A stretch of 64,000 nucleotides of DNA, from contig CBEUCJ010000004.1 in assembly GCA_965541615.1 (NCBI GenBank), positions 21,167 through 85,166 of the forward strand. The letters are read 5' to 3'. Origin of the DNA: an uncultured bacterium. GTDB lineage: Bacteria; Omnitrophota; Gorgyraeia; Duberdicusellales; CBEUCJ01. Shown one piece after another: positions 8,701 through 50,971 of the stretch (its first letter is position 1; the number at the start of each line of letters is the position of its first letter). The notes beneath the pieces were generated by a model, which saw only the letters and a list, made by a program, of their open reading frames with translations, was not told where the DNA came from and did no database searches. Both the position numbers and the translations under genes were made by a program.

Positions 8701-8843
8701 GCCCCAGATGGATCTTTTTTCTTTGATTCTTTATCTATGTAAACTCCTCCTCCATAAATTTCTGCTTTTTGAATAGGTTCTTTGGCATATATAAAAGGGA
8801 TGAAGATGATTATTAAGAATAAAATTACAGCTTTTTTCTTCAT
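5769..8843 (-). CDS. Large secreted surface protein with N-terminal signal peptide and at least 4-5 CARDB-like repeats
   Basis: Signal peptide MKKKAVILFLIIIFIPFIYA; repeated DP.N.I.E.NE.NN motifs typical of CARDB domains; only minus-strand gene in window. Confidence 0.7.
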   Translation of the reverse strand: MKKKAVILFLIIIFIPFIYAKEPIQKAEIYGGGVYIDKESKKKDPSGAQATAEFAWKQRSPGIKSWCSATAWIGGARASLRTYHYKTFGFVNIKPGTKFKVNIRFKVSLFGVINASSFAGGQNFYKAKISVGVHEGATGPLNSPIVEKVIWAKTNKKEWVDWAEEVAQTVASEAIEEATGVVGIGTILDVVDYTVDALDADEVISKEITYEFKNVPVEAGKTYRVYVSLDSLVVAAGAAVNEAGACINFYKHKSCFSGESVPKLRKWGIGIKEVSIEIPEGLPYPIGVGPNRPDLTVKSIDITPSKPKLDESINIKAVIENKGAIDASEIPFVIKCGGKIIFKQIIKELKKEESIAIETAYNIKRTGKHKFVAIVDSENKIDELKENNNSAYESVYIAPEPDLLLQTEEISGKLAEPGFGVESEKGGAPQIGVPTRIWVKVYNFGNRPAKNVHVLFEKDGKPITSVFIPYIKRNSYRIASIQYTFDKARKYTFKVTVDPHNSISELNESNNSIYFTVEVGLPEYDLSIDSLEFNPESFQAKDEVKFLINVSNKGKAKAPVDIFVYVDSALIKHISTKIPAGEKIIIGDGKPENDLIVWKAESGTHIIKAILKTKGYKDLNEKDNVISKKISVPEFLPVKGVDFVLRKEDVKLDRKSCKVRVFNRGTKSATALVKFKVFYIEENEVKSKVLASFARIIPAKKYRDFSINYSQKPPFKMVISVDPYNRVREVNEDNNEVTYTYGNFEKAVQQAYKRKQKEKEIQKRIPLMVTKFWGTDTPIKVGETKSIGAQFKNISGRSLRNIVVKIEIINVEKERDPKFGYASYVKVWPSVVNKGEFQVTFPYKAVYPGKFKIRATAQVYFGKIVREITKESYFYVKGGEYPPYYFQEKGADLSIYPQDFILKPSLKVNVREPVNLFITVHNAGKIDLNNVKVLVKANNTPIHTKILPRLKANSSSSFSFSYTPQTPGPLIFKVIVDPENQIGEVNETNNEVTKQISVHGVWMQLWEKIYKKWKKKIFKEIFSE

Positions 8844-38052: not shown

Positions 38053-40206
38053 ATGATGAGTCTAAATTTATTTAGTATTTCTTCTTTTCTAATTTTCATT
38101 TTTAGTATTTCTTTGGGTATTTTTACTTTTTTAAAGAATAGAGAAAGAATAGGAAAAATATGGATTTCTTTTTGTTTTCTTGCTTCTATTTGGGGGTTTG
38201 GGGGATACAAGTTCTCTACGGTTTCTAACTACGACGATGCTTTTTTTTGGTGGCAGGTTGCATATATATGTGTAATTCTCTCTCCTGTGGTGTACACTCA
38301 TTTTGTATTTGTTTTTCTTGAAATAAAGAAGAAGTTTTTTTTGTGTTGTTTTTATATCTTAGCAGGAATATTTTTAGGACTTAATTTTTTTGCTCCTAAA
38401 CTTTTCTTAGGAGATTTAAGGTTCATATTTAATCAATTTTGGTGGCATGATTGGGTTAAGAGAAAAAATGTAGTATGGTTAATTTTTTATTTTTGTTTTT
38501 ACTGGTATCTTTTGGTATATTGCTTTTTTCTATTGATAAAATATTATAAGAGAACTTCTGGTGTAAAAAAGTTTCAGTTAAAATATTTTATATTAGCTTC
38601 AGTTTTTGGGTGGATAGGTCCAATTGTAGATTATCTTCCCGTTTTTCGGATCGATATTTATCCTTATGCTAATTTTTTAACAATTCTTTATCCCTTTCTT
38701 ATTACGTATGCCGTTGTCAAGTATCGTCTTATGGACATTCGCATTACGATTACTCAAACAGGCATTTTTGGTTTAGTTTATGCTTTGATATTGGCTATCC
38801 CTTTTGCAATAACTTTCTGGGGAAGAGGACATTTATATCCTTATTTTGGAGAATTCTGGTGGGTGCCTTCATTTATACTTTTAGCAGTTTTAGCTTCTAC
38901 AGGTCCTTTTATTTATATGTATTTACAAAAGAAAGCAACAGATTTTTTATTAAGAGAAGAGAGGAAGTATCAAGAGGCGCTTTTGGCTTTGGCAAAAGAA
39001 ATGGTGAATGAGAAAGATTTAGATAGATTATTGAGGATTATAGTTTTAAGAGTTTACAGATTAATGAAGTTAAAATTTACAGGAGTCTATTTATGTGAAA
39101 AAGAAGATAGTTTTGCTGTTTTGAAATATAAATGGCCTAAAAAAGAAAATCCATTGCCCCAAAGACTTCACTTACACACATCTTCTCTAATAAAAGCTAT
39201 TAAGGAAAAGAAATCTCCTTTTGGTTTAGATGAAGCAGAAGTCGATAAAGAATCAGAAGGTTTACCTGATTACGGAGCAATAATTCCTTCTTTTATGGAT
39301 GATACCTTAATTGGTTTTTTATTTTTAGGTCCTAAAAAGAAAGGAGATTTTTCGCCAAGAGACTATGAAGTATTTGAGACTTTAAGTTTACAAGCAGCTT
39401 TAGCTATTGAGAATGCTTTATATTTAGAAGAGTACAAAAAGACTCAAGAAGCTTTGTTTCAAGCTGAAAAATTAGCAAATATAGGTGTGATGGCTTCAGG
39501 GATGAGTCATCAGATGAATAACAGATTGCAGGTCATAAGTCTAATAGCAGGAGATATAAAAGATGAGATAAATTTCTTAAAGGAAACCGACCCTGAAACT
39601 CTAAAAACTTTCATTGCTCATGTAAAAGAAAATATGGAAAGATTAGAAGAAGAGATAAAGCATGGAAGAGAAGTGATAAGAGGTCTTTTAGATTATTCAA
39701 AGAAAAGACAGATAAGGTTTATGCTTGTAAATTTTGAAAAGGACATCTTGCAAGATGCTTTAAAACTTTTGTATACCAAGCAAAAAATAGAAGATGCAGA
39801 ACTCAACTTTGAGATTCAAAAAGATTTACCTTCTATTTGGGCAGAACCTACTCAGATGGCAGAAGTCGTGTTTAACTTATTAGACAACGCTTACGAAGCT
39901 GTAATTATGAAAAAGAATCATCTAAATGATTCAAATTTTAAAGGGAGAATAACATTGAAAGCCTACAGTATAAATGAATTTTTTAGAATAGATGTAGAGG
40001 ACAATGGAATAGGAATTAAAGAAGAAGATAAAAAGAAAATTTTTATCCCCTTTTTCACAACAAAATCTTCTACAAAATCAGGTTTTGGATTAGGTATGTA
40101 TGTAGTAAAGAGGATAATAGAATCTCATAAAGGTAAAATCTGGTTTGAATCTAAATATTTAGAAGGAACCAAATTCCATATAGAACTCCCCTTACCTCAA
40201 TTTTAA
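38053..40206 (+). CDS. Sensor histidine kinase with large multi-TM N-terminal sensor, no adjacent response regulator
   Basis: About 10 TM helices, then HisKA (SHQMNNRL) and HATPase_c (DNGIGI…GFGLGM) motifs. Confidence 0.75.
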   Translation: MMSLNLFSISSFLIFIFSISLGIFTFLKNRERIGKIWISFCFLASIWGFGGYKFSTVSNYDDAFFWWQVAYICVILSPVVYTHFVFVFLEIKKKFFLCCFYILAGIFLGLNFFAPKLFLGDLRFIFNQFWWHDWVKRKNVVWLIFYFCFYWYLLVYCFFLLIKYYKRTSGVKKFQLKYFILASVFGWIGPIVDYLPVFRIDIYPYANFLTILYPFLITYAVVKYRLMDIRITITQTGIFGLVYALILAIPFAITFWGRGHLYPYFGEFWWVPSFILLAVLASTGPFIYMYLQKKATDFLLREERKYQEALLALAKEMVNEKDLDRLLRIIVLRVYRLMKLKFTGVYLCEKEDSFAVLKYKWPKKENPLPQRLHLHTSSLIKAIKEKKSPFGLDEAEVDKESEGLPDYGAIIPSFMDDTLIGFLFLGPKKKGDFSPRDYEVFETLSLQAALAIENALYLEEYKKTQEALFQAEKLANIGVMASGMSHQMNNRLQVISLIAGDIKDEINFLKETDPETLKTFIAHVKENMERLEEEIKHGREVIRGLLDYSKKRQIRFMLVNFEKDILQDALKLLYTKQKIEDAELNFEIQKDLPSIWAEPTQMAEVVFNLLDNAYEAVIMKKNHLNDSNFKGRITLKAYSINEFFRIDVEDNGIGIKEEDKKKIFIPFFTTKSSTKSGFGLGMYVVKRIIESHKGKIWFESKYLEGTKFHIELPLPQF

Positions 40207-40470
40207 ATAAATTAGCTTTCTTAAAATAAACTTTTTAATACATGTAACACCTAATGCCATTTATTCAGCACTAAACTTTGGGGTTAGAAGATAATGTAAT
40301 AATTTTTTAGATATTAAAAATGGGGCATTTTATAAGGACTCTTTTTGTTTCAATACTTTTGTTAGAAAATAAAGAATATTTGCTTTTTGTATAATGATAT
40401 GTGATAATTTATTGATTTTAGAAAAAAGAAAAAAAATATTTTGAGAGTTATTTAAAATTTGCAAGATTAA

Positions 40471-40737
40471 TTAAGAAAAAAAGCCAATCACATTTTTGGA
40501 GAGGTTAAAGTATTAGTTTTTGGCTCAGTTGTAAAAGGAGACTATCTTTCAAATAGGGATATAGACATTTTAATCATAACTGAAAATTTGCCTCAAGAAT
40601 TTTTTGAGCAAGTTAAATTAAAACAAAAATTATTAGAAGGTTTAGAAGAGAATCCTTTCCAGATACATCTTGCTGCTCCTCAAATGTATCAAAGATGGTA
40701 TAAGAATTTTATAAAAGATAATTATTTAGAAGTTTAA
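40471..40737 (+). pseudogene. N-terminally truncated nucleotidyltransferase (MNT) paralogue of the gene at 41139; no start codon in frame
   Basis: …VLVFGSVVKGDY…DIDILIITENLP…FQIHLAAP…, about 55% aa identity to 41139 product; frame opens right after a TAA. Confidence 0.5.
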
Positions 40738-40747
40738 GAGGTGTCAA

Positions 40748-41142
40748 ATGGACATTGGATTCTTGAAAGAGAGAGCAAATGAATTTTTTGAAGAAGCGCA
40801 AGAATTATTAAAGAAAAAGAAGTATAATCTTTCAGTTTTCAATTTAGAGCAAGCAATTCAATTATGGATAAAATACTTGATTGGCAAGAAAATAGGAGAT
40901 TGGCCTAAGACGCATTTTTTTCAGAATTAATTCCTCAATTAGCTCAGGTTTATGAGGAAGAAAAGATTTTAGAATTTTATAAAGAAAATGAACTATTTTT
41001 TGATAGTTTAGAAGATGCTCATTTTACTTCTCGGTATTTTCCAAAAAAATTCACTGAAAATGTTATATTAAAACTTTTTGAATATTCTAAAAAATTTTTT
41101 AAATTGATTAAAGAGACTATTAATGAAGATTTTTCCCTATGA
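40748..41142 (+). pseudogene. HEPN-domain gene with -1 frameshift in a T7 run (about 40912-40918)
   Basis: Two consecutive ORF pieces; T8 would give …KTHFFSELIPQLAQV… continuing to HFTSRYFP HEPN motif. Confidence 0.55.
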
Positions 41143-41495
41143 AGAAAAGTCTGGTCGATATAATTTTACCTATACATAAAAAAAAGGAGATGTACTTTAG
41201 GAATTATAAGTCTTATTGTCAAGAAATTAAAAGAATAGCAAAATGTTCTTTGAAAGAAGTAAGAGTGTTAGTGTTTGGTTCAGTGGTAAAAGATAAACAT
41301 ACTCCAAGTAGTGATATCGATGTTTTAATAATTTCTAATAACCTTCCTGAAGAATTTGAAGAGAGAGAAAAGATCAAGACAAATATTAAGTCAAAAATAG
41401 ACCCCTTTTCTCCATTTCAGCTCCATTTAGCCACACCTAAGGAATTTAAAGAATGGTATGAAAACTTTTTGAAAGGTAATTATCTAGAAATATAA
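41139..41495 (+). CDS. Minimal nucleotidyltransferase (MNT)
   Basis: VLVFGSVVKDKHTPSSDIDVLII NTase motif. Confidence 0.7.
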   Translation: MKKSLVDIILPIHKKKEMYFRNYKSYCQEIKRIAKCSLKEVRVLVFGSVVKDKHTPSSDIDVLIISNNLPEEFEEREKIKTNIKSKIDPFSPFQLHLATPKEFKEWYENFLKGNYLEI

Positions 41496-41546
41496 TTTTT
41501 TTAAAAAAATTTCAACTTGACAAAATACAGATTATAGTATATATTT

Positions 41547-41565
41547 GAAAATGAAAATCATTATC
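41547..41565 (+). promoter_or_regulatory. Fur box upstream of fur (17/19 match to GATAATGATAATCATTATC)
   Basis: GAAAATGAAAATCATTATC, 16 nt upstream of fur ATG; overlaps likely -10 region. Confidence 0.6.
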
Positions 41566-41580
41566 AATAAGGAGTGATCA

Positions 41581-42069
41581 ATGCCACACAGAAGGCATAG
41601 AAAAGGAATGATGTGGTGGCATATGAGGTTTATAGATGCAGGTTTTAGAATGACTTTGCCAAGACAAGCAATTATGGAGGTTTTAAGTAACACTACAGAG
41701 CATTTGAGTGCTGAAGAAATATACCTTAAAGTGCGCAAAAGATATCCTGGAATAGGACTTACAACTGTGTACAGAACTTTAGATATTCTAGTTAACATGG
41801 GACTCATATCTAAATTTGATTTTGGAGATGGCAGAGCACGTTATGAATTATCAGAGACTTCAAAGGGTGCAAAACCTCATCATCATCATTTGGTATGTAG
41901 AGAGTGTGGGAAAATAATAGATTATACAGAGTTTATAGATGATGAAGTAGAATTAATTAACAACATTCAGAAAAAACTTTCAGAAAAATATAACTTTAAG
42001 ATAACAAATCACATTATTCAATTTTATGGATTGTGTGATAAATGTCAGCAGAAGAATAAAGTAACGTAA
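41581..42069 (+). CDS. fur: Ferric uptake regulator family transcriptional regulator (Fur/Zur/PerR)
   Basis: Winged-helix N-terminus; HHHHLVCRECG and CDKC metal sites. Confidence 0.8.
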   Translation: MPHRRHRKGMMWWHMRFIDAGFRMTLPRQAIMEVLSNTTEHLSAEEIYLKVRKRYPGIGLTTVYRTLDILVNMGLISKFDFGDGRARYELSETSKGAKPHHHHLVCRECGKIIDYTEFIDDEVELINNIQKKLSEKYNFKITNHIIQFYGLCDKCQQKNKVT

Positions 42070-42088
42070 ATTTTTTTCTTTGGTAAAT

Positions 42089-42107
42089 GAAAATGATTAT
42101 CATTATT
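42089..42107 (+). promoter_or_regulatory. Second Fur-box-like site (16/19) immediately upstream of the aromatic small-protein operon
   Basis: GAAAATGATTATCATTATT, 21 nt upstream of ATG 42128. Confidence 0.5.
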
Positions 42108-42127
42108 AATAAAAGGGGGTGAGAAAA

Positions 42128-42355
42128 ATGAGAGGAAGAAATTTTTGGGGACCAGGATTTTGGAAATTTGGGTATTTAGGATATCCTTATTATCCAAGCT
42201 ATTTTGGATTTCCTTTTTTCTGGGGTAGAGGAAGAGGGAATCCATTTCCTTTTTGTAGATGGTTTCCATTTTTACCTCGTGGATGGTGGGCGATGCCATT
42301 CTTTTTAAGTATGTGGCAAAATATTTATCCATATCAAGGAGGAACTACAAAATGA
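42128..42355 (+). CDS. Small W/F/Y/P/G-rich protein 1 (75 aa; no coiled-coil tail)
   Basis: RBS GGGGGTG; about 45% aromatic+Pro+Gly; ORF-track start 42119 (GTG) replaced by ATG 42128. Confidence 0.55.
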   Translation: MRGRNFWGPGFWKFGYLGYPYYPSYFGFPFFWGRGRGNPFPFCRWFPFLPRGWWAMPFFLSMWQNIYPYQGGTTK

Positions 42356-42519
42356 TTTTTAGAGAAAGCTTTTTAAAATTTATTGATTCTAAATCTTTGC
42401 ATAATGATTCTGCTTACTTTGCTATACATTGGCCCTATTTTTGGAATAGGACTCTTATAGGAAAGAATGTTCAAAAAAAGAAAGAAGGAATAAAAGAAAA
42501 AGTTAAAAAAAGGAGGTGA
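42352..42519 (+). CDS. Small ORF (55 aa) with strong RBS, aromatic/basic
   Basis: GGAGG 8 nt upstream of ATG 42352; fills gap between neighbours. Confidence 0.35.
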   Translation: MIFRESFLKFIDSKSLHNDSAYFAIHWPYFWNRTLIGKNVQKKKEGIKEKVKKRR

Positions 42520-42755
42520 TAGTTATGCCTTTCGGAATGGGACCAGCTGGTTGGTTTTTAGCACCATACATTTATCCTCAGATTTTAAATTTTTATCAAA
42601 ATTTTCTAAGAATGTGGGGTTATCCATTTTATGGATTCTCAATGCCCTTTTATGGAGGTGATGAATTAAGTTACTTAAAACAATTAAAGCAGAATTTAGA
42701 ACTTCAGTTACAAGACATTGAAAGAAGGATTAAAGAATTAGAATCTACTACTTAA
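42516..42755 (+). CDS. Small W/F/Y/P/G-rich protein 2 with C-terminal coiled-coil (…LELQLQDIERRIKELEST)
   Basis: RBS GGAGGTGA; MPFGMGPAGWF… N-terminus; heptad-like C-terminus. Confidence 0.65.
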   Translation: MIVMPFGMGPAGWFLAPYIYPQILNFYQNFLRMWGYPFYGFSMPFYGGDELSYLKQLKQNLELQLQDIERRIKELESTT

Positions 42756-42777
42756 TAAAATAAGGAGGTGAGGGGAT

Positions 42778-43080
42778 ATGAGAGGTTATAGACATAGAAA
42801 TATGTATTATTTAACAGGATTACCTGGTTGGATGAGATTTGGATTTAGTCCTGGGTGGGGAGGTTTACCTCCTGGAGCTCAATATATGTTTACAGGAAAT
42901 TGGCCTACTCTGCAGGCAAATTCTTTATGGTCAAATATTTCTCAAAATGCAACATTTGATCCTTATAAAGTCTCTCAGATTAGTAAAGAGCAAGAGTTGC
43001 AGCTTTTAAAGCAACAGGCAGAAGCTTTAAAAGCTCAGCTTGAAAGAATAGAAAAAAGAGTTCAAGAGTTAGAGTCTTAA
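42778..43080 (+). CDS. Small W/F/Y/P/G-rich protein 3 with C-terminal coiled-coil (…LKAQLERIEKRVQELES)
   Basis: RBS GGAGGTGA; paralogue of the preceding two genes. Confidence 0.65.
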   Translation: MRGYRHRNMYYLTGLPGWMRFGFSPGWGGLPPGAQYMFTGNWPTLQANSLWSNISQNATFDPYKVSQISKEQELQLLKQQAEALKAQLERIEKRVQELES

Positions 43081-43115
43081 AAAGTTGTAAGTTTGTTTAA
43101 TAAAGGAGGGAGTTT

Positions 43116-43634
43116 ATGAAAATTTGCGTAACAGCTCAAGGAAATACTTTAGAATCTTTGGTAGATCCCAGATTTGGAAGAGCTCAATATTTTATAATTT
43201 ATGATACTGAGACTGATTCTTTTGAAAGTATCTTAAATCCAAATTTAAATCTATTTTCAGGAGCAGGAATTCAAAGTGCACAACTTATAGTACAAAAAGG
43301 AGTTCAAGTTTTAATTACAGGAAACGTGGGACCCAATGCTTTTAATGTATTAACAGCTGCTGGAATAAATATAATAACAGGTATAATGGGAGTATCAGTA
43401 AAGGAAGCTATAGAAAGATTTAAGAGAGGAGAGTTGAATTTTACTTTTTCTCCAACAGTCTCTAAACACTTTGGAGCTCAAATGTATCCACCAAACTTTG
43501 GGACGATGCCATATCAATTTCAAACTTCTAAAGCACAAGAACTTAATATGTTAAAACAACAACTTCAATTTTTAAAACAGCAGATCGAGATGATAAACCA
43601 GAGAATAAAGGAGTTAGAAAAAAATGAGCAATAA
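43116..43634 (+). CDS. NifB/NifX-fold protein ('dinitrogenase FeMo-cofactor-binding' domain) with a C-terminal aromatic+coiled-coil extension homologous to the preceding small proteins
   Basis: …DPRFGRAQYFIIYD…ITGNVGPNAF…; tail GAQMYPPNFGTMPYQF…LKQQLQFLKQQIEMINQRIKELE. Confidence 0.65.
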   Translation: MKICVTAQGNTLESLVDPRFGRAQYFIIYDTETDSFESILNPNLNLFSGAGIQSAQLIVQKGVQVLITGNVGPNAFNVLTAAGINIITGIMGVSVKEAIERFKRGELNFTFSPTVSKHFGAQMYPPNFGTMPYQFQTSKAQELNMLKQQLQFLKQQIEMINQRIKELEKNEQ

Positions 43635-43914
43635 AGCTACAGTCCTTAAAGAAATTTGTAGAGGATGTGGACTTTGTGCTTTTAGTTGTCCTCAGAATGC
43701 TATAACTATCATCTTTGGAAAAGCTGAAGTAGATAAATCTAAGTGTATAGGATGCAGAAGATGCATCCAAGTATGTCCTGTAAAAGCTATTGTAATCACT
43801 CCTTCTGTAAATAAAGAAGAAGTAGAGATTTTTAAAAAACAGGTTAGAAGATTAAAGGAGAGAATAACGACTGTTAACAGAAAGATAAAAGATTTATTAG
43901 AAAAAAGGAGGTGA
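43624..43914 (+). CDS. 2x[4Fe-4S] ferredoxin with C-terminal basic coiled-coil tail
   Basis: CRGCGLCAFSCP and CIGCRRCIQVCP; tail …RRLKERITTVNRKIKDLLEKRR. Confidence 0.75.
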   Translation: MSNKATVLKEICRGCGLCAFSCPQNAITIIFGKAEVDKSKCIGCRRCIQVCPVKAIVITPSVNKEEVEIFKKQVRRLKERITTVNRKIKDLLEKRR

Positions 43915-43917
43915 TTT

Positions 43918-44625
43918 TTGAAAGTAGCTATAGCTGTAGATAAAGGTAAAGTTTCAGCTCATTTTGGAAGATGTGAAGAGTTTGTCTTATTAGAAATAGA
44001 AGATTCAAAAGTAATCAGTAAAAAAATGATTAAAAATCCAGGACATAAACCTGGATTTCTACCTCAATTTTTAAAGGAGCTAAAAGTAGATGTAATAATC
44101 ACAGGAGGGATGGGTAAAAAAGCTTTAGAATTGTTTGAGAAAGCGCAAATAAAAGTTATTTTGGGGATCACAGGAGAAGTTGAAGACGTAATAAATGAGT
44201 TTTTGAAAGGTAATTTAAAAAGTAAGGAAAGTTTATGTACACGAGATACATTTAAAGAAACTGAAGTTAAGTATTATAAAGAAAAAGGTAGTAAGATTTG
44301 TATTACTTCTAAAGGAGATAGTTTAGATTCAGAGTTAGATCCTAATTTTGGAAGGTGCAACTATTTTATCATTTTTGATTTAGAGAGTTCAGATTACGAA
44401 GCTATAGAAAACCCTTATAAAGATTTACCTCAAGGAGCAGGGATAAGGAGCGCTCAATTTGTTATAGAAAAAAATGTAGATACTCTTTTAACAGGAGAAG
44501 TAGGTCCTCATGCTCAGGAAGTTTTACAGAAAGGCGGGGTTAATTTAATAAAAAGAATTTCAGGAAGAGTAAGAGAAGTAATTGAAGCGTTTAAAAAAGG
44601 AGGACCTAATTATGTGGGGCAATAG
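43918..44625 (+). CDS. Tandem NifB/NifX-fold domain protein (two 'FeMo-cofactor-binding'-like domains)
   Basis: Two repeats of …FGR(C)..F…D…ITGG/TGEVGP… pattern; TTG start with RBS GGAGGTGA. Confidence 0.6.
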   Translation: MKVAIAVDKGKVSAHFGRCEEFVLLEIEDSKVISKKMIKNPGHKPGFLPQFLKELKVDVIITGGMGKKALELFEKAQIKVILGITGEVEDVINEFLKGNLKSKESLCTRDTFKETEVKYYKEKGSKICITSKGDSLDSELDPNFGRCNYFIIFDLESSDYEAIENPYKDLPQGAGIRSAQFVIEKNVDTLLTGEVGPHAQEVLQKGGVNLIKRISGRVREVIEAFKKGGPNYVGQ

Positions 44626-44800
44626 AGAAGAAGATATCAATAGAATTCAGAGAGGACAAGGAAGGATGGGTAGAAGAGGTTTAGGTCCTGGAGGATTTTG
44701 TAAATGCTTAAGATGTGGCACAAGAATTCCTCATCAAAGAGGAACCCCTTGTTATACTTTAACTTGTCCTAACTGTGGGGCAAGGATGGTTAGAGAATAA
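44612..44800 (+). CDS. Small Gly/Arg-rich zinc-ribbon protein (CxC…CG…CPNCG)
   Basis: GRMGRRGLGPGGFCKCLRCG…CPNCG; ORF-track start 44582 would overlap upstream gene, ATG 44612 preferred. Confidence 0.5.
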   Translation: MWGNREEDINRIQRGQGRMGRRGLGPGGFCKCLRCGTRIPHQRGTPCYTLTCPNCGARMVRE

Positions 44801-44821
44801 TTTTGAAGTTTTTTGAAAAAA

Positions 44822-45673
44822 ATGAAAATATCTGTTGCCAGTGGAAAAGGAGGAGTAGGCAAAACCACAGTAGCTGTAGCTTTAGCAGATGTTTTGGTTT
44901 CATCAAAAAATGTGAATGTTTTGTTCTTAGATTGTGATGTAGAAGAACCAAATTCTTATTTTTTTATAAAACCTCAAATAACCCAAAAAATTCCAATCTA
45001 TACTCAGATTCCTCAGGTAGATAAAAATAAGTGTAATTTTTGTGCAAAATGTAGTAAAATTTGTGCTTATAATGCTATAGCAGTGGTGAAAACAGAGGTC
45101 TTAATATTTGATAATCTTTGTCATGGATGTGGAGCTTGTAGTTTTTTTTGTCCTCAAAAAGCAATAAAAGAAGTGAACAAAGAAATAGGATTTATTGAAA
45201 TAGGAGAAAAAGAAAATTTAAAATTTATTCATGGCAAATTGAAAATAGGACAAGCAATACCTACACCTTTAATTAAAGCTGTAAAAAGCTATATAAATGG
45301 TTTTGATTTTACTATAATAGATGCTCCTCCAGGAGCAAACTGTAGTGTAGTAGAATCTGTTAAGAACACAGATTTTTGTATTGTAGTTACAGAGCCTACC
45401 CCTTTTGGTTTAAGTGATATGATTCAGTTGACGCAGCTTTTAAAAAGGCTTGGTATTAAATTTGGAGTGATTATAAATAAAGAGAATTTAGGAGATGAAA
45501 GAGTTGAAAAGTTTTGCAAAGAAAATGATATTCCTATTCTACTAAAGATTCCTTTTCTGAGAGAAGTGAGTTTTCAAAGTGCAAAAGGTCAAATTTTAAC
45601 AAAAATCCTACCTGAGTATAAAAGAGAGTTTGACAAAGTTATAGAAAGAATTAAAGTTCTAAACTCAAATTAG
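44822..45673 (+). CDS. MinD/ParA-superfamily P-loop ATPase with inserted 2x[4Fe-4S] ferredoxin domain
   Basis: SGKGGVGKTT; CNFCAKCSKIC and CHGCGACSFFCP. Confidence 0.8.
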   Translation: MKISVASGKGGVGKTTVAVALADVLVSSKNVNVLFLDCDVEEPNSYFFIKPQITQKIPIYTQIPQVDKNKCNFCAKCSKICAYNAIAVVKTEVLIFDNLCHGCGACSFFCPQKAIKEVNKEIGFIEIGEKENLKFIHGKLKIGQAIPTPLIKAVKSYINGFDFTIIDAPPGANCSVVESVKNTDFCIVVTEPTPFGLSDMIQLTQLLKRLGIKFGVIINKENLGDERVEKFCKENDIPILLKIPFLREVSFQSAKGQILTKILPEYKREFDKVIERIKVLNSN

Positions 45674-45687
45674 GAGGGGGGTAGAGT

Positions 45688-47034
45688 ATGTTTATTAATA
45701 CTGATATTCTAATAATTGGCGCAGGTCCTGCTGGAATAGTAACAGCAACTACTGCACGTAAATACTATCCTGAGAAGAAAATTTTGATAGTAAAAAATGT
45801 AGAAAGAGGAGTAATCCCTTGTGGAATTCCTTACATGTTTTATAGTTTAAAGAATCCTGAGGAAAATGAGTTAAAGATTACTCCTTTAGAAAAGAAAAAT
45901 ATTCAGGTAATTATAGATGAAGTAGTAAACATAGATAGAATTCAGAAGATAGCCTATACAAAGAATGGAGATATGATAAATTATGAGAAATTAATAATGG
46001 CAACAGGCTCTCTTCCTCAAAGTTTGCCTATTCCTGGAATAGAGAAAGAAGGAGTTTATTTGATTTATAAAGATATGGAATATCTCAGAAAAGTGGTAGA
46101 AAAAGTAAAGAATTCAAAGAATGTCTTAATAATAGGAGGAGGGTTCATTGGATGTGAAGTGGCAGATGAGATTTCCAAAATAGAAGGAGTAAATGTGTAT
46201 TTAGTAGAAGTTTTACCTAATTTGTTAGCAAATTCTTTTGATCCTGAATTTTCTAAAATCGTAGAAGAAAAGTTAGTTTCAGAAGGTGTCAAGGTCTTAA
46301 CTAATACTAAAGTAGTAGAGATTATAGGTAAAGAAAAGGTCGAAGAAGTCCTGTTATCTGATGGAAGAAAAATAAAAGTAGATGTGGTGATTTTAGGGAT
46401 AGGTTCTGTTCCTAATACAGAGTTAGCTCAAAAAATAGGTTTAGAGATAGGTAAAAGAAAGGGGATAAGAGTAGATGAATACATGAGGACTTCAGATCCA
46501 AACATATTTGCAGTCGGAGACTGTGCAGAAAAAAGAGATTTTTTTACACGTAAACCTGTTCAAGTAATGTTAGCTTCTACTGCTACAGCTGAAAGCAGAA
46601 TCTGTGGAGCAAATATTTATAAATTAAAAGTAATCCGTGAAAATAAAGGTACAATCGCTATCTATTCAACATTTATAAATGGAGTAGTTTTAGGTTCTGC
46701 AGGTTTAACTGAAAAAACTGCAAATTTAGAAGGATTTGAGATTATAACAGGCATTGCAGAAGCTCCAGACAAACACCCTAAAACTTTACCTTCAGCAAAC
46801 AAAATAAAAGTAAAGCTTATTTTCTCAAAACATTCAGGGATTATTTTAGGAGGACAGGTTGCAGGAGGCATGAGTTGTGGAGAGTTAATAAATTTAATAG
46901 GTGTAGCTATTCAAAAAAGAATGTCTTTTACAGAATTAGAGACTTTACAGATGGCTACACACCCTTATTTAACACCAGCACCTACAATGTATCCTGTAGT
47001 TTTAGCTGCTCAAGATGCAGCGAATAAGATTTAG
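45688..47034 (+). CDS. Pyridine nucleotide-disulfide oxidoreductase of the CoA-disulfide reductase / NADH oxidase (single-Cys) family
   Basis: IIGAGPAG FAD motif, redox PCGIPY Cys, IIGGGFIGCE NAD motif. Confidence 0.75.
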   Translation: MFINTDILIIGAGPAGIVTATTARKYYPEKKILIVKNVERGVIPCGIPYMFYSLKNPEENELKITPLEKKNIQVIIDEVVNIDRIQKIAYTKNGDMINYEKLIMATGSLPQSLPIPGIEKEGVYLIYKDMEYLRKVVEKVKNSKNVLIIGGGFIGCEVADEISKIEGVNVYLVEVLPNLLANSFDPEFSKIVEEKLVSEGVKVLTNTKVVEIIGKEKVEEVLLSDGRKIKVDVVILGIGSVPNTELAQKIGLEIGKRKGIRVDEYMRTSDPNIFAVGDCAEKRDFFTRKPVQVMLASTATAESRICGANIYKLKVIRENKGTIAIYSTFINGVVLGSAGLTEKTANLEGFEIITGIAEAPDKHPKTLPSANKIKVKLIFSKHSGIILGGQVAGGMSCGELINLIGVAIQKRMSFTELETLQMATHPYLTPAPTMYPVVLAAQDAANKI

Positions 47035-47040
47035 AGAGAG

Positions 47041-47916
47041 ATGAATCCAAAAGAGTTAGTTATAATTAGTGGAAAAGGTGGCACAGGTAAAACTACTCTT
47101 GCTTTGGGTTTAGTTTCCATTTTTAAAAATATAGTAATTGCAGATTGTGATGTAGATACTCCTGATTTACATTTGGTATTAAAGCCTTATAAGACAGAAG
47201 AAAAAGGAATATTCAAAGAGAGGTTTACAGCTTTCATAAATAAAGACAGATGTATAGAATGCGGAAAGTGTAGACAAGTTTGTAGATTTGAAGCTATAAG
47301 CAAAGATTTAGTGGTGAACTCTTTAGAATGTCAGGGTTGTAGATTTTGTGAATTAGTGTGTCCTCAAAAAGCAATAGAGATGAGAGAAGAGATTACAGGA
47401 AACTGGCAGATTTCTCAAACAAGATTTGGTCCTTTTGTTTGGGCTCAACTTACTAATTTAGGTGAGAATTCAGGAAAATTGGTAAGTTTAATAAGAGAGA
47501 AGGCAAGAAATCTTGCTAAAAAAATAGGTTCAGAATTAGTCATCATAGATGGTTCACCAGGTATTGGATGTCCAGTAATAGCTTCTATAACTGGTGCAAA
47601 TTTTTGCGTAGTAGTCACAGAGCCTAGCTTATCAGCTTTACATGATGCTGAGAGAGTTATAAGACTTACTGAACATTTTAGAATAAAAGCGGGTTTAGTG
47701 ATAAATAAATACGATTTAAATCCAGAGTTAACTCAAAAGATCCAAGATTGGGCTCAAAAAGAAGAGGTTGCTATTTTAGGAAAAATAAAGTTTAAAGAGT
47801 CAGTAATAAAAGCTATGTTGGAGTTAAAAACCGTAATAGAATTTCCAGATCAAGAAATAAAATCTACTTTTTACGAGATTGCATCTAAAATAAAAGAAAG
47901 ATTAGAAGCTAGTTAA
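47041..47916 (+). CDS. Second MinD-type ATPase with inserted 2x[4Fe-4S] ferredoxin domain
   Basis: SGKGGTGKTT; CIECGKCRQVC and CQGCRFCELVCP. Confidence 0.8.
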   Translation: MNPKELVIISGKGGTGKTTLALGLVSIFKNIVIADCDVDTPDLHLVLKPYKTEEKGIFKERFTAFINKDRCIECGKCRQVCRFEAISKDLVVNSLECQGCRFCELVCPQKAIEMREEITGNWQISQTRFGPFVWAQLTNLGENSGKLVSLIREKARNLAKKIGSELVIIDGSPGIGCPVIASITGANFCVVVTEPSLSALHDAERVIRLTEHFRIKAGLVINKYDLNPELTQKIQDWAQKEEVAILGKIKFKESVIKAMLELKTVIEFPDQEIKSTFYEIASKIKERLEAS

Positions 47917-47930
47917 TTGGAATAATTATT

Positions 47931-48755
47931 ATGCAAGGAGTAGATAATTTTTCCCAAATAAAAATGCAGATAAAAGAAAATCTTTCTCAAGTAAAATATA
48001 AATTACTTATTATCAGTGGAAAAGGAGGGGTAGGCAAAACCACAGTAGCTGTAAATTTAGGATATAGTTTAGCTGTTAAAAAATATAAAGTTGGAATATT
48101 AGATGTAGATATTCATGGTCCAAATGTGCCTAAAATGTTAGGGATAGAAAATCAAAGACTTACAGCCTCTGAAAGTGGAAGAATAGAACCCGTTCAGGTT
48201 TTACCTAACTTAAAAGTAGTGAGTTTAGCTTTAGTAGGTGAGGATCCTGAAAAACCAGTCATATGGCGAGGACCTTTAAAAACAGCAGTAATTAGACAGT
48301 TTTTAGCTGAAAGTAATTGGCAAGATTTAGATTTCTTAATTGTAGACTCTCCTCCTGGAACAGGAGATGAACCTTTAAGTGTTTGTCAATTGATCTGTGA
48401 GTTAGATGGAGCAATAGTAGTAGCTACTCCTCAAGAAGTAGCTCTTTTAGATGTTAAAAAGAGTATTTTATTTGCTAAAGAGTTAGGTGTCCCAATAATT
48501 GGAATAGTTGAGAATATGAGTTTCTTTATATGTCCTCATTGCCAAAAAAAGATAGATTTACTCACAACACAAAAAATTGAAGAAATTATTCAAAAGACTG
48601 GTATTCAGATTTTAGGAAGACTTCCTTTTGATATTGATGTGTTAAGATTTCAAGATAGAGGAAGACCTTTTGTTTATTTTAATAAAGATTCAGAAGCAGC
48701 CAAAATTATGGATAGAATTACAGATAAAATTGTAGATTTTTTAGTAAAAAAATGA
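47931..48755 (+). CDS. Mrp/ApbC/NBP35-family Fe-S cluster carrier ATPase
   Basis: SGKGGVGKTT plus C-terminal CPHC motif. Confidence 0.8.
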   Translation: MQGVDNFSQIKMQIKENLSQVKYKLLIISGKGGVGKTTVAVNLGYSLAVKKYKVGILDVDIHGPNVPKMLGIENQRLTASESGRIEPVQVLPNLKVVSLALVGEDPEKPVIWRGPLKTAVIRQFLAESNWQDLDFLIVDSPPGTGDEPLSVCQLICELDGAIVVATPQEVALLDVKKSILFAKELGVPIIGIVENMSFFICPHCQKKIDLLTTQKIEEIIQKTGIQILGRLPFDIDVLRFQDRGRPFVYFNKDSEAAKIMDRITDKIVDFLVKK

Positions 48756-49651
48756 GAACGTATTTAGATTGTATTCCTTGTTTTTTTAAGCAAGCATTAG
48801 AAGCTTCAAGGATTTCTGGAGCGAGCAGAATAACACAAAAAAAAGTGTTAGATGAATTAGCAAAAATTTTGCCTAAGTTTTCTTTAAACACACCTCCTCC
48901 TTTGATGGGTAGAGTTATTTATAAATTGGTTAGTAAACTTACTAAAAATTTAGATCCTTATCGTGAGATAAAAATAAAAAGTAATGAATTAGCTTTAAAT
49001 ATTTATCCAAAGTTAAAGAGAAAAGTAGCACTTTCAAAAGATAGATTAAAAAAAGCTATAGAGTTAGCTATTGCAGCAAATTCTATAGATTATGGAGTAA
49101 GAAACTCTTTGAATATAGAAGAAGAATTAAAAAGAATTTTAAGAGAAGAAGAAAAGACTATTAAAGTGGAAAATAAAAGATTTTTTGAGTATGAGGAATT
49201 TAAAAAAGCTTTAAATAAAGCAAAGACTATTCTTTATTTAGGTGATAATGCAGGAGAGGTGGTTTTTGATAGAGTTTTGATTGAAGAGATTAAAAAAATA
49301 GATAAGAATAAAAAAATAATTTATGCAGTAAAATCTAAACCTATTATAAATGATGCTTTAGTTGAAGATGCTTTACAAGCAGGCATTCATAAAGTAGCTG
49401 AGATAATCCTTTCAGGAGTAGATGCTCCAGGCACTATTCTTTCTTTATGTTCAAAAGAATTTTTAAAAGTTTATAAAAATGCAGATCTAATAATCAGTAA
49501 AGGACAAGGAAACTTTGAAGCTTTATCAGACAAAAAGCATCCAATATTCTATTTGTTTATGGCAAAGTGTAAAACTGTGGCCAACCACTTAGGATGTAAA
49601 CTTAGAGATATAATTCTGTTTCATAATTTAAATAATAAAGTGTTAAAATAA
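48752..49651 (+). CDS. DUF89 (ARMT1-like damage-control phosphatase) family protein
   Basis: N-terminal DCIPCFF motif and overall DUF89-like sequence. Confidence 0.55.
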   Translation: MRTYLDCIPCFFKQALEASRISGASRITQKKVLDELAKILPKFSLNTPPPLMGRVIYKLVSKLTKNLDPYREIKIKSNELALNIYPKLKRKVALSKDRLKKAIELAIAANSIDYGVRNSLNIEEELKRILREEEKTIKVENKRFFEYEEFKKALNKAKTILYLGDNAGEVVFDRVLIEEIKKIDKNKKIIYAVKSKPIINDALVEDALQAGIHKVAEIILSGVDAPGTILSLCSKEFLKVYKNADLIISKGQGNFEALSDKKHPIFYLFMAKCKTVANHLGCKLRDIILFHNLNNKVLK

Positions 49652-49936: not shown

Positions 49937-50971
49937 ATGATAGGAGAAGTAATACTTCACAATTTTAAACATGCAGGAATGATAACAGTCTTTGTCTTCA
50001 TAATGATGATATTTACAGATTATCTTAATGTTTTAACAAAAGGCAGAATGAGTAAGATGATAAAAGGAGGTTTATTTAGACAATATCTTATAACTTCATT
50101 TTTAGGAGCAACACCTGGGTGTTTAGGGTCTTTTATGAATGTGTCTTTTTATGTACATGGATTAATCTCTTTTGGAGCAATAGTAGGGGGAATGATTGCT
50201 ACTTGTGGAGACGAAGCTTTTGTAATGCTAGCAGTTATTCCTAAACAAGCTTTGATATTATTTGGTATCCTTTTTGTTTTAGGAGTAATCTCTGCATACA
50301 TTGTAGATAAAATAGTTCCTCTTTTAAAGATTAAGCCTTGTAAAGTGTGTGAACTTTCAAATTTACATCTGCAACCTGAATGTAGATGTCTTGAATTTAA
50401 AGAAATAATCGAGCACATAAAAAAGATGTCTTTACAAAGATTTTTACTTTTGTTCCTTTTGTTTATATTTCTTTATGGATTTGTTGGAGGGATAATTGGT
50501 CCTTCTGAATGGAATTGGAAGAGGATTACTTTTGTTTCTCTATTGAGTTTAGCTATTTTTATAGTAATTACAGTTCCTGACCATTATTTAGAAGAACATA
50601 TTTATTCTCATATTTTTAAAACGCATATTTGGAAAGTATTCTTGTGGAGTTTTGGGGCATTAGTTTTGACAGATTTAGGTTTACATTTCTGGGATTTAAA
50701 GGCATTTATAAGTCAGCATATGATATGGGTGCTTTTAATTGCAACTTTTGTAGGAATAATTCCAGAATCTGGACCAAATTTAGTTTTTGTTATGATGTTC
50801 TCAAAAGGATTAATACCTTTTTCTGTGCTTTTGGCAAATTCAATAGTTCAGGATGGTCACGGTATGTTACCTTTGTTATCTTATACAATAAAAGATTCAA
50901 TGTTGGTAAAATTGTTTAATTTAATTATTGGTTTAGGAGTAGGAACTTTTTTATACTTTCTGGGATTTTAA
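49937..50971 (+). CDS. Polytopic membrane protein with internal two-fold repeat (putative permease)
   Basis: About 10 TM helices; halves share G(L/I)(I/P)xFxxxxAxxIxxxG pattern. Confidence 0.45.
   Translation: MIGEVILHNFKHAGMITVFVFIMMIFTDYLNVLTKGRMSKMIKGGLFRQYLITSFLGATPGCLGSFMNVSFYVHGLISFGAIVGGMIATCGDEAFVMLAVIPKQALILFGILFVLGVISAYIVDKIVPLLKIKPCKVCELSNLHLQPECRCLEFKEIIEHIKKMSLQRFLLLFLLFIFLYGFVGGIIGPSEWNWKRITFVSLLSLAIFIVITVPDHYLEEHIYSHIFKTHIWKVFLWSFGALVLTDLGLHFWDLKAFISQHMIWVLLIATFVGIIPESGPNLVFVMMFSKGLIPFSVLLANSIVQDGHGMLPLLSYTIKDSMLVKLFNLIIGLGVGTFLYFLGF

Follow-up and report, generated by a model that had tools for sequence, protein, structure and literature searches.

The Fur box of E. coli and B. 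subtilis is a 19-bp element, GATAATGATAATCATTATC, read as overlapping 7-1-7 repeats, and in classical fur autoregulation the operator overlaps the promoter of the fur gene itself. In delta-proteobacteria, Rodionov et al. (2004, PMC545781) described the FUR box WTGAAAATNATTTTCAW upstream of fur and feoAB, in places as overlapping boxes shifted by 6 bp; across five genomes, their boxes also precede flavodoxin and hypothetical genes. The NifX-like genes Dde_3197-3199 of D. alaskensis G20 co-vary with feoA and flavodoxin (PMC10533852).

Two described systems resemble the genes that accompany the fur gene studied here. The ORP complex of Desulfovibrio vulgaris comprises Orp3, Orp4, Orp5, Orp8 and MrpORP (PMC6345978), and its divergent operons are controlled by sigma-54, OrpR and IHF (PMC8359166, PMC3897727). 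IssA of Pyrococcus furiosus is a thioferrate iron-sulfur storage protein made when iron and sulfide are abundant, with a tail of 70 residues that includes 14 aromatic residues, 15 Gly, 11 Pro and 7 cationic residues (PMC5524996). As for repressors bound within a transcription unit, roadblock repression is well documented in CodY and CcpA, and the Fur-family protein Zur has been examined for it (PMC4324032); roadblock termination has been reviewed (PMC10310618).

Two near-consensus Fur boxes flank a fur gene

The window, by which we mean the whole 64-kb stretch of DNA analysed, contains a fur gene with a candidate Fur box on either side. The features of this region are as follows.

41517..41545, + strand: predicted sigma-70-type promoter of fur (-35 TTGACA at 41517-41522, 17-nt spacer, -10 TATATT at 41540-41545)
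41547..41565, no strand assigned: Fur box 1 (19-mer), with its best 7-1-7 core TGAAAATCATTATCA at 41552-41566 (14/14)
41569..41574, + strand: Shine-Dalgarno AAGGAG of fur, read from the sequence
41581..42069, + strand: fur, encoding a 162-aa Fur-family regulator with an N-terminal extension of about 20 aa (PF01475 match)
42071..42077, + strand: T7 tract, directly 3' of the fur stop and 10 nt 5' of the box 2 core
42083..42107, no strand assigned: Fur box 2, two overlapping 19-mers (42083-42101 and 42089-42107), with its best 7-1-7 core TGAAAATGATTATCA at 42088-42102 and a second core at 42094-42108

Box 1, GAAAATGAAAATCATTATC, occupies 41547-41565 with two mismatches to GATAATGATAATCATTATC, and box 2, GAAAATGATTATCATTATT, occupies 42089-42107 with three mismatches on the + strand and two on the - strand. 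These positions are as the initial annotation had given them, and its counts of 17/19 matches to the 19-bp consensus for box 1 and 16/19 for box 2 were reproduced, the latter becoming 17/19 when the - strand is read. It had further placed the boxes 16 nt before the fur ATG (41581) and 21 nt before the first small gene, whose ATG is at 42128; both do lie close upstream of these start codons, but the gaps are 15 and 20 nt, respectively. A perfect 7-1-7 core, TGAWAATNATTWTCA, is present in both boxes (41552-41566 and 42088-42102), each of which carries a second, 12/14 copy of the core at an offset of 6 bp.

When up to three mismatches to GATAATGATAATCATTATC were allowed, these two boxes were the only matches in the entire 64-kb window, and dinucleotide shuffles gave a mean of 0.06 matches, with the observed count reached in none of 100. 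A weight matrix derived exclusively from sites in the loci of other organisms assigned 24.0 bits to box 1, 21.0 bits to box 2 and 18.1 bits to the overlapping site at 42083, shifted 6 bp from box 2; the next independent site in the window scored 12.2 bits. The maximum score under a Markov-1 null had a mean of 11.6 (sd 2.7; 200 windows), and 21 bits was reached in none of 1000 random sets of intergenic composition.

The promoter assigned to fur matches the sigma-70 consensus at 11 of 12 positions, and its -10 element ends 1 nt before box 1. Since box 1 lies immediately 3' of the -10, the predicted transcription start (~41553) would be covered by it, and this predicted geometry is the usual arrangement for autorepression. 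In 65 of 66 related loci the box is adjoined by the pattern TTGACA-17-TATAWT, and in the consensus of the loci AATAAGGAG follows on its 3' side. The adjacency of the -10 and box 1, both in the window and in these 65 loci, lends support to the earlier proposal that box 1 serves fur autoregulation.

The two-box arrangement is conserved across phyla

A comparison set of 80 related loci was drawn from more than ten phylum-level lineages, and the two-box arrangement around orthologous fur genes was found to recur across these loci at the same distances. The median position of the upstream site was -36.5 nt relative to the fur ATG (66 loci), with the window site at -34, and that of the downstream site was +21 nt relative to the fur stop (57 loci), with the window site at +19. 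Conservation was tested with the E. coli consensus alone, hence the test was not circular. At a threshold of at least 14/19 matches, a site was present in 55 of 77 upstream flanks (71%) and in 46 of 78 downstream flanks (59%), compared with 0.8% of 3558 control windows taken from the same loci. The symmetrised consensus of 123 sites from the orthologous loci was exactly GATAATGATAATCATTATC.

Sites of at least 14 bits in the 541,669 bp covered by the loci were concentrated around fur, with 74 before the gene, 77 after it and 17 elsewhere, most of the last lying before a first gene that had been inserted or a DUF5320 gene that was displaced. L086, a sister lineage, has kept both boxes as well as the promoter, and its sequence upstream of the -35 has diverged; the core of its box 2 is identical to that in the window. 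Lineages with a Fur-family gene and two operators on the cluster include Omnitrophota, WOR-3, Atribacterota, Nitrospirota, bins labelled as Planctomycetota and others. The recurrence of the sites at fixed positions indicates that both are very probably genuine operators of the Fur-family repressor encoded between them.

A distinct subfamily of Fur regulators

The match of the regulator to PF01475 (E 7.7e-36) spans profile positions 2-121 of 121, taking in the winged-helix and dimerisation parts, and its best NCBIfam and PDB matches were Fur proteins. None of the NCBIfam Fur equivalog cut-offs was reached (140.4 bits against 220 for NF051892, the Bacillus-type Fur, and 106 against 146 for NF006999), which places the protein in a separate subfamily rather than in an equivalog. 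This subfamily is tightly conserved, with 60-70% identity across phyla, and is always linked to one specific operon, not to feo genes. Its unique N-terminal extension has invariant W12, G21 and R23 residues, mostly as GCGYR, with a Cys that the window protein and the members from the Atribacterota lack. An N-terminal MPxGDGTGP motif is common to the regulator, the DUF5320 proteins and a small zinc-ribbon protein encoded in the same operon. A literature search retrieved no description of this Fur subfamily or its regulon, a C. beijerinckii match having proved to be true nif genes.

Candidate metal ligands are H41, E89, H100-103, D114, E122/E124 and H144, which are invariant or nearly so across the subfamily and align with H33, E81, H87-H90, E101 and H125 of V. 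cholerae Fur, the alignment near E122/E124 being uncertain owing to a 3-residue insertion. A Cys4 set (C106, C109, C152 and C155) is also conserved in the subfamily. Fur is discriminated from PerR by a Glu where PerR has Asp and by an Arg where PerR has Asn (PMC8638967), and the regulator is Fur-type at both positions, with E89 and with R65, the latter invariant within the recognition helix TVYRTL. Together with the operator consensus, these two residues disfavour identity as PerR or Zur. From the signature residues and the geometry of the sites, we infer that iron is the signal and repression the direction of control.

The operon downstream of box 2

Box 2 sits in the 58 nt that separate fur from a tightly packed series of about 13 downstream genes, which are listed below.

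42128..42355, + strand: small protein 1, a 75-aa protein that lacks acidic residues (36% aromatic, 16% Gly, 13% Pro; pI 10.3)
42352..42519, + strand: small ORF, 55 aa, with a start that overlaps the stop of small protein 1; a gene call in public assemblies
42525..42755, + strand: small protein 2 (76 aa), aromatic in its N-terminal half and with a C-terminal coiled coil of DUF5320 type
42778..43080, + strand: small protein 3, 100 aa, truncated DUF5320-like (PF17253, 26.7 bits against a cut-off of 27)
43116..43634, + strand: NifX-like (Nitro_FeMo-Co) domain with a 66-aa DUF5320-type tail, IssA-like architecture (PF17253, 27.5 bits against a cut-off of 27)
43624..43914, + strand: 2x[4Fe-4S] ferredoxin
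43918..44625, + strand: protein with two NifX-like (Nitro_FeMo-Co) domains (E 1e-48, two stretches)
44612..44800, + strand: Gly/Arg-rich Cys4 zinc-ribbon protein, 62 aa
44813..45673, + strand: MinD/ParA-type P-loop ATPase with an inserted 2x[4Fe-4S] motif, Orp3/Orp4-like
45688..47034, + strand: pyridine-nucleotide disulfide oxidoreductase, CoA-disulfide-reductase-like; gene also present in loci L083 and L086
47041..47916, + strand: second MinD/ParA-type ATPase with ferredoxin motifs
47931..48755, + strand: Mrp/NBP35-type Fe-S carrier ATPase (PF10609, E 3.3e-91)
48752..49651, + strand: ARMT1-like/DUF89 protein, probably the last gene of the tightly packed operon

Full DUF5320 proteins (PF17253) combine an N-terminal MPxGDGTGP...GYC motif with a C-terminal coiled coil, and it is the coiled coil only that is matched by small protein 2 (hhalign 92%, E 5.5e-7, residues 43-75) and small protein 3 (97%, E 9e-12). 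Small protein 1 had no match to Pfam, NCBIfam or the DUF5320 profile, so that its consideration as a DUF5320 homologue was not supported, and no family match was obtained for the 55-aa ORF at 42352..42519. Across the loci, the first gene after fur encodes a full DUF5320 protein in 59 of 71 cases and a NifX-like protein in 5 of 71, and box 2 is always 5' of the DUF5320/NifX-like genes. Orthologues of the zinc-ribbon protein are present in most loci, have about 70 aa and start with MPxGDGTGP.

Components related to the ORP system were recognised in the form of Orp3/Orp4-type MinD-like proteins with two ferredoxin motifs and an Orp8-type NifX-like protein. The two-domain MrpORP, a fusion of Mrp/NBP35 and Di-Nase, was not found in the operon, where Mrp/NBP35 is a separate gene; the protein at 43918..44625 scored 139.6 bits against the MrpORP C-terminal domain (NF041136), below the cut-off of 450 and over the Di-Nase part only. 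Judged by its gene content, the operon looks like an ORP/IssA-type system for the handling or storage of iron-sulfur. A full-text literature search found no study of DUF5320 function.

Proposed signal and mode of repression

With the boxes as operators of the encoded regulator, a metal-loaded Fur dimer, most probably with Fe2+, would bind box 1 and block initiation, thereby lowering transcription of fur and of the entire fur-led operon from 41581 to about 49651. Box 2, as an overlapping double site, could hold two dimers and would impose a second, stronger layer of repression on the downstream genes only. When the metal is scarce, both boxes would be vacated and the operon expressed.

That the boxes might be chance products of AT-rich intergenic DNA is scarcely credible, even though the window has approximately 30% G+C, the Fur consensus is itself AT-rich, and 22.4 bits was reached in one of 200 Markov-1 random windows. 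All three nulls (shuffled, Markov and intergenic) speak against such an origin, and it is refuted by the position-specific conservation in 80 loci of 33-56% G+C, in line with the initial view that two such matches would seldom arise by chance. Were the genome to encode a second Fur paralogue at another place, that protein could use the boxes as well. The regulator might sense something other than Fe2+, such as Mn2+, Zn2+, Ni2+, peroxide or, via its N-terminal extension, an Fe-S species, given that it scored below all NCBIfam equivalog cut-offs, belongs to a distinct subfamily with a unique conserved extension and is invariably linked to one operon instead of feo genes. We regard this as improbable, as Glu89 in place of Asp and Arg65 in place of Asn argue against PerR, the Fur site-2 and site-3 ligand positions are all conserved, the operator consensus is the classical Fur box rather than a Zur or PerR box, and the N-terminal Cys is absent from the window protein and from the Atribacterota members.

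The manner in which box 2 would act is a separate question. The initial annotation had it heading a small-protein operon; its place as a Fur operator before the small-protein genes is upheld by the conserved position, but not its role at the head of a separate transcription unit, for which there is no recognisable promoter. No promoter-like site was found on the + strand near 42040-42128, and a sigma-54 element (TGGCAC-N5-TTGC) was not seen when the same stretch was read by eye. Nor was a canonical sigma-70 promoter found at box 2 in the related loci: no conserved -35/-10 pair precedes box 2 in 58 loci, and matches of at least 9/12 occur in 9 of 58 at scattered positions. Lacking such a promoter, box 2 probably acts inside the fur-led operon, and we consider it more likely to be an internal operator of this operon of about 8 kb than part of a separate promoter. 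Overlap with a weak or non-canonical promoter, making the small-protein operon an independent Fur-repressed unit, is nonetheless a possibility, if a somewhat unlikely one. In its favour are the ribosome-binding site and start codon that follow box 2 with the spacing seen at box 1, and the A/T-rich flank just 5' of box 2 (WWWAAT). Furthermore, in loci L027 and L033 the DUF5320/NifX-like genes are displaced from fur and the DUF5320 gene has its own canonical promoter and box, meaning that the operon can be transcribed on its own. It is opposed by the missing promoter elements in the window and the 58 loci, and the T at -1 and the A at +20 that are conserved there form part of the operator palindrome.

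An internal box 2 could work together with the T tract that precedes it. Runs of at least six T occur at a fixed distance before box 2 in 44 of 57 loci, the T7-8 tract lying 9-10 nt upstream of the box 2 core; the corresponding figures are 9 of 65 for box 1 and 3.8% for random windows. No terminator-like hairpin was found before the T tract of the window, and one precedes just 7 of 52 T tracts in the loci, hence a classical intrinsic terminator after fur was rejected. A search of the two spacers for known RNA elements in Rfam (E up to 1) returned only a meaningless snoRNA match inside fur. Box 2 and the hairpin-less tract might instead constitute a Fur-dependent roadblock terminator, in which bound Fur would stop polymerase arriving from the fur promoter at a point where the polymerase active site contains a U-rich hybrid, and the transcript would be released, such that Fur would still be made with the downstream genes off. 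Consistent with this, the tract is absent where the DUF5320 gene has its own promoter and box (L027 and L033), and it is kept in the loci of Nitrospirota, whose operons have fur as their second gene; moreover, the conserved sigma-70 promoter so regularly found at box 1 (65/66) has no counterpart before box 2 (9/58). The terminator is proposed from geometry. Roadblocks formed by EcoRI or LacI stall polymerase roughly 14 bp ahead of the bound protein, a distance that would here correspond to the start of the T tract and not its end. The tract could instead aid Fur binding as a shape element, enhance translation as a U-rich element or belong to a promoter that has escaped recognition, and we consider the terminator unlikely on balance. 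It would refine how box 2 works and is compatible with both boxes being Fur operators.

Significance

Fur boxes and fur autoregulation are textbook matters, and the value of the present sites lies in the genes they point to: this is a known kind of control element with a new regulon. Clusters of DUF5320, stand-alone NifX-like proteins and MinD-like ferredoxin ATPases are among the most widespread uncharacterised gene clusters of anaerobes, and study has been confined to two relatives, the Desulfovibrio ORP complex and Pyrococcus IssA, each of which is regulated differently. A fur gene and two operators on the cluster yield a testable statement, namely that it belongs to the iron response, along with an operator/repressor pair ready for reporter assays. 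The fixed T tract before box 2 adds a small puzzle that could reveal a roadblock-type terminator. At its most speculative, and with a low probability of holding in all its parts, the combined picture would be of a dedicated Fur subfamily in more than ten mostly uncultured anaerobic phyla that controls a DUF5320-based, IssA/ORP-like machine for the storage or trafficking of iron-sulfur, through an initiation block at the fur promoter and an iron-dependent roadblock terminator ahead of the target genes. The MPxGDGTGP motif, as a possible common docking or cofactor-binding tag, would tie sensing to the machine.

Comparison with known systems

The consensus of the loci is identical to the classical Fur box, and here too the operator overlaps the promoter of fur. 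The locus departs from classical Fur control in that its regulator, which has an N-terminal extension, comes from a separate subfamily, a second operator lies directly after the fur stop with no evident promoter, and the regulon seen is one specific operon rather than uptake genes. The cores TGAAAATCATTATCA and TGAAAATGATTATCA each differ from the delta-proteobacterial WTGAAAATNATTTTCAW at one position, and the overlapping boxes shifted by 6 bp and the box upstream of fur are further likenesses, whereas the two-box fur arrangement with DUF5320/NifX-like genes in uncultured phyla is not described in that work (PMC545781).

With the ORP system, the locus shares paired MinD-like ATPases (2x[4Fe-4S]), single-domain NifX-like (Di-Nase) proteins and an Mrp/NBP35 carrier in one cluster. 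It differs in being a single co-directional operon led by a Fur-family gene, with Fur boxes and a sigma-70-type promoter, in the addition of DUF5320 and aromatic small proteins, and in that the Mrp and NifX-like domains are unfused.

IssA joins a NifX/NifB-type IPR003731 domain to an unstructured cationic, aromatic and Gly/Pro-rich tail, and partly similar elements recur here. The IPR003731 domain occurs three times in the operon, and the middle regions of the DUF5320 proteins have 20% aromatic residues, 26% Gly, 10% Pro, 13% K+R and 1% D+E; the tail of the protein at 43116-43634 has a pI of 9.2 and only 3% Gly. In this operon, by contrast, most tail-like segments are polypeptides of their own that end in a coiled coil. 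IssA, moreover, is induced by abundant iron and sulfide, not by a Fur-type low-iron signal. There is a tension of logic between its synthesis at abundant iron and sulfide and the expression at low iron that repression by holo-Fur predicts. As in the roadblock repressors CodY and CcpA of B. subtilis and LacI at O2, the operator at box 2 would lie inside a transcription unit, 3' of the promoter, although the conserved hairpin-less T tract that precedes it here is a feature not described for those repressors.

Two conserved operators flank fur

The Fur-family regulator gene of the window, fur, has a Fur box on either side, box 1 before its start and box 2 after its stop codon, and these lie amongst the following features.

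Features of the fur region in the window
41517-41522 and 41540-41545, fur promoter, -35 TTGACA and -10 TATATT with a 17-nt spacer (11/12 matches)
41547-41565, box 1 19-mer, GAAAATGAAAATCATTATC
41569-41574, fur ribosome-binding site, AAGGAG
41581-42069, + strand, fur, 162 aa, FUR domain (PF01475, E 7.7e-36)
42071-42077, T tract directly after the fur stop codon
42089-42107, box 2 19-mer, GAAAATGATTATCATTATT

The initial annotation had placed both 19-mers exactly, and overstated each distance to the next gene by one nucleotide: 15 nt, not 16, separate box 1 from the fur ATG (41581), and 20 nt, not 21, separate box 2 from the ATG of the first small gene (42128). When both strands of the 64 kb window were searched for GATAATGATAATCATTATC at three or fewer mismatches, box 1 and box 2 were the only positions returned. 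Chance matches averaged 0.06 and none of 100 dinucleotide-preserving shuffles equalled the observed count, upholding the earlier view that two such matches were unlikely to be fortuitous. A perfect 7-1-7 core, TGAWAATNATTWTCA, is found at 41552-41566 in box 1 and at 42088-42102 in box 2, each accompanied by a second copy (12/14) offset by 6 bp. With a weight matrix derived from the sites of related loci, the window being left out, box 1 scored 24.0 bits and box 2 21.0 bits; a shifted site overlapping box 2, at 42083, scored 18.1 bits, and the next independent site in the window 12.2 bits.

A scan with the subfamily alignment yielded 80 loci around orthologous fur genes, one genome per species, with a G+C content of 33-56%. 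They were labelled as Omnitrophota, WOR-3, Atribacterota, Thermodesulfovibrionales/Nitrospirota, Planctomycetia-labelled bins, Calditrichota, TA06, Ignavibacteriaceae, Elusimicrobiota, Spirochaetota, Cloacimonadota, Clostridia and Syntrophaceae. The E. coli consensus alone was used to scan 80 nt ahead of the fur start codon and 70 nt beyond the stop codon, and matches of at least 14/19 were detected in 55/77 upstream and 46/78 downstream flanks; among 3558 control windows taken from these loci, the frequency was 0.8%. Median site positions were -36.5 nt and +21 nt (-34 and +19 in the window), and the symmetrised consensus of 123 sites from the loci was exactly GATAATGATAATCATTATC. Recurring at similar positions around fur in most of the flanks surveyed, both sites are true, conserved Fur-type operators. 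In the closest relative (GCA_053996315.1; Fur 85% identical), the promoter and both boxes were retained and the sequence 5' of the -35 element could not be aligned with that of the window.

The loci total 541,669 bp, in which 74 sites of at least 14 bits preceded fur, 77 followed it and 17 lay elsewhere, a partly circular count. Most of the 17 were informative. In five Nitrospirota loci, promoter and box stood ahead of a gene for a 122-aa Cys-rich protein inserted before fur, and in L027, L033 and L071 a DUF5320 (PF17253) gene displaced away from fur carried a box.

Genes for the 122-aa Cys-rich protein, by locus
L011, 131-499
L031, 3604-3972
L035, 124-492
L038, 3591-3959
L066, 572-940

This protein of the Nitrospirota/Thermodesulfovibrionales bears the motifs CVGGC and CGGCPG, and in the loci that encode it fur takes second place in the operon.

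Over loci L006-L085 the consensus of box 1, GATAATGGAAACCATTTTC, contains a single good 7-1-7 core and has a central G/C pair, and that of box 2, GAAAATGATTATCATTAAC, contains two overlapping cores. Because the boxes differ in this systematic manner, different affinities or stoichiometries are suggested for them.

Directly upstream of the fur promoter, the window holds two consecutive HEPN and nucleotidyltransferase gene pairs (~40004-41495), toxin-antitoxin-like, which are absent in the sister lineage L086, where fur follows a histidine kinase gene.

The Fur-family protein

The best curated matches of the fur product were Bacillus-type Fur (140 bits) and E. coli-type Fur (106 bits), followed by PerR (101 bits) and Zur (44 bits), with scores below the equivalog cut-offs of the Fur, PerR and Zur models. 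The nearest solved structures were Fur proteins, namely 9ire, then V. cholerae 2w57 and C. jejuni 6d57/4ets. A database-wide search retrieved 3669 relatives, the best 120 of which were 63-85% identical and belonged to WOR-3, Omnitrophota, Atribacteria, Nitrospirae, Latescibacteria and unnamed bins. When 25 subfamily members were aligned, H41, E89, H101-103, D114, E122 and H144 were invariant, as were four cysteines (C106, C109, C152 and C155) and, in the recognition helix, Y64 and R65; the invariant residues line up with the metal-binding residues of V. cholerae Fur. By published criteria, Fur-type proteins have Glu at the E89 position, where PerR has Asp, and Arg in the helix, where PerR has Asn (PMC8638967).

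The subfamily also conserves an N-terminal extension of ~20 residues, with the consensus MPxRxGxGPPWWHGRFRGCGYR. An N-terminal motif, MPxGDGTGP, is common to the DUF5320 proteins and a ~70-aa Cys4 zinc-ribbon protein (L006-L085), is weak in the Fur extension (window 41581-41640), and is degenerate in the window's own versions. For an HMM of the DUF5320 N-terminus run against a 1754-ORF database, E values were 1e-6 to 1e-2 for the zinc-ribbon proteins and 0.008-5 for 11 Fur N-termini.

Genes downstream of box 2

The interval 42128-49651 is densely filled with genes, in the following order.

Genes of the packed stretch
From 42128, four small genes
Protein with a NifX-like (Nitro_FeMo-Co) domain and a DUF5320-type tail
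2x[4Fe-4S] ferredoxin
Double NifX-like protein
Gly/Arg-rich Cys4 zinc-ribbon protein
MinD-like ATPase with ferredoxin motifs
Pyridine-nucleotide disulfide oxidoreductase
Second MinD-like ATPase
Mrp/NBP35 carrier (PF10609, E 3e-91)
To 49651, ARMT1-like protein

Among the other loci, fur was followed first by a gene for a full DUF5320 protein (59/71) or a NifX-like protein (5), and then by two NifX-like, a zinc-ribbon and two MinD-like genes. In the window, what appear to be derived forms take the place of the DUF5320 gene. Only the C-terminal coiled coil of DUF5320 is left in small proteins 2 and 3 (hhalign 92% and 97%), and small protein 1 (42128-42355) had no detectable similarity to DUF5320 or any family. 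The latter is 36% aromatic (27/75), 16% Gly (12) and 13% Pro (10), with 8 Lys plus Arg, one Cys, no acidic residues and a pI of 10.3. In the 85%-identity sister lineage this position is likewise taken by a 75-aa gene.

After a gap of 285 nt, the operon is followed by a gene for an ArsP_2-type putative heavy-metal exporter with 10 TM segments (49937-50971), before which the weight-matrix scan of the window found no Fur-like site. Across positions 1-64000 the + strand bears nearly all ORFs of at least 150 aa and GC skew is positive in all 2-kb bins but one; on the minus strand, the only large gene (5769-8843, 1024 aa) gave a weak PorU-like match.

Proposed mode of action of the two boxes

With the fur promoter ending one base before it, box 1 covers the predicted start site, ~41553. 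This promoter-against-box arrangement was also present in 65/66 loci, and upstream sites often have G at box position 8, which fits an initiating purine. Such geometry is standard for promoter occlusion, and points to autoregulation.

At box 2, no promoter-like site was found on the + strand between the fur stop and 42128, and only 9/58 box 2 sites had promoter matches of at least 9/12, at scattered positions. Conserved instead was a T run directly after the fur stop: at least six T occurred at a fixed spacing of 9-10 nt from the main 7-1-7 core in 44/57 loci; ahead of box 1 such runs occurred in 9/65, and in random windows of 45 nt their frequency was 3.8%. In the window and in L006-L085 this tract is T7-8, mostly hairpin-less and 5' of the box 2 core. 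A terminator-like hairpin preceded only 7/52 T tracts and was not found before the window's tract. The tract was absent where DUF5320 has its own TTGACA-17-TATATT and box (L027, L033). Most simply, fur would form one operon with the genes that follow it, and box 2 would be a second, internal operator. Speculatively, Fur bound at box 2 could act as a roadblock, stalling RNA polymerase on a U-rich hybrid and causing iron-dependent termination at a point that would separate fur from its targets. CodY and CcpA are known examples of roadblock repression, which was also tested for Zur (PMC4324032), and roadblock termination has been reviewed (PMC10310618). Alternatively, box 2 may cover a weak, unrecognised promoter. 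The initial interpretation of one autoregulatory operator and another acting on the downstream system is supported, and we infer which metal acts as the effector, in which direction the operon responds and how Fur acts at box 2.

Comparison with known systems

The kind of element is already known; in the literature searched, no description was found of this Fur subfamily, of its regulon or of two operators combined with a T tract. Through these operators, a gene cluster that is very widespread and uncharacterised is tied to metal sensing. The window operator equals the classical Fur box and nearly equals the delta-proteobacterial FUR box WTGAAAATNATTTTCAW, instances of which overlap with a 6 bp shift and also precede fur (PMC545781).

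The gene set resembles that of the Desulfovibrio orange protein (ORP) complex, with its MinD-like ferredoxin proteins Orp3/Orp4, NifX-like Orp8 and MrpORP. The genes of that complex are transcribed from divergent promoters under sigma-54, OrpR and IHF (PMC8359166, PMC3897727), and its Mrp is fused to a NifX-like domain; no window protein reached the cut-off of the fused MrpORP model. The DUF5320 middle regions (20% aromatic, 26% Gly, 10% Pro, 13% Lys plus Arg, 1% Asp plus Glu) match the tail chemistry described for IssA, a tail proposed to wrap anionic thioferrate (PMC5524996), although the tail-like parts are here separate proteins. IssA is produced when iron and sulfide are plentiful (PMC5524996), the opposite of what repression by holo-Fur predicts. 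A supportive observation comes from a cultured organism, D. alaskensis G20, in which the NifX-like Dde_3197-3199, adjoining the MrpORP gene Dde_3202, co-vary with feoA and flavodoxin (PMC10533852), both predicted FUR-regulon members in Desulfovibrio species (PMC545781).
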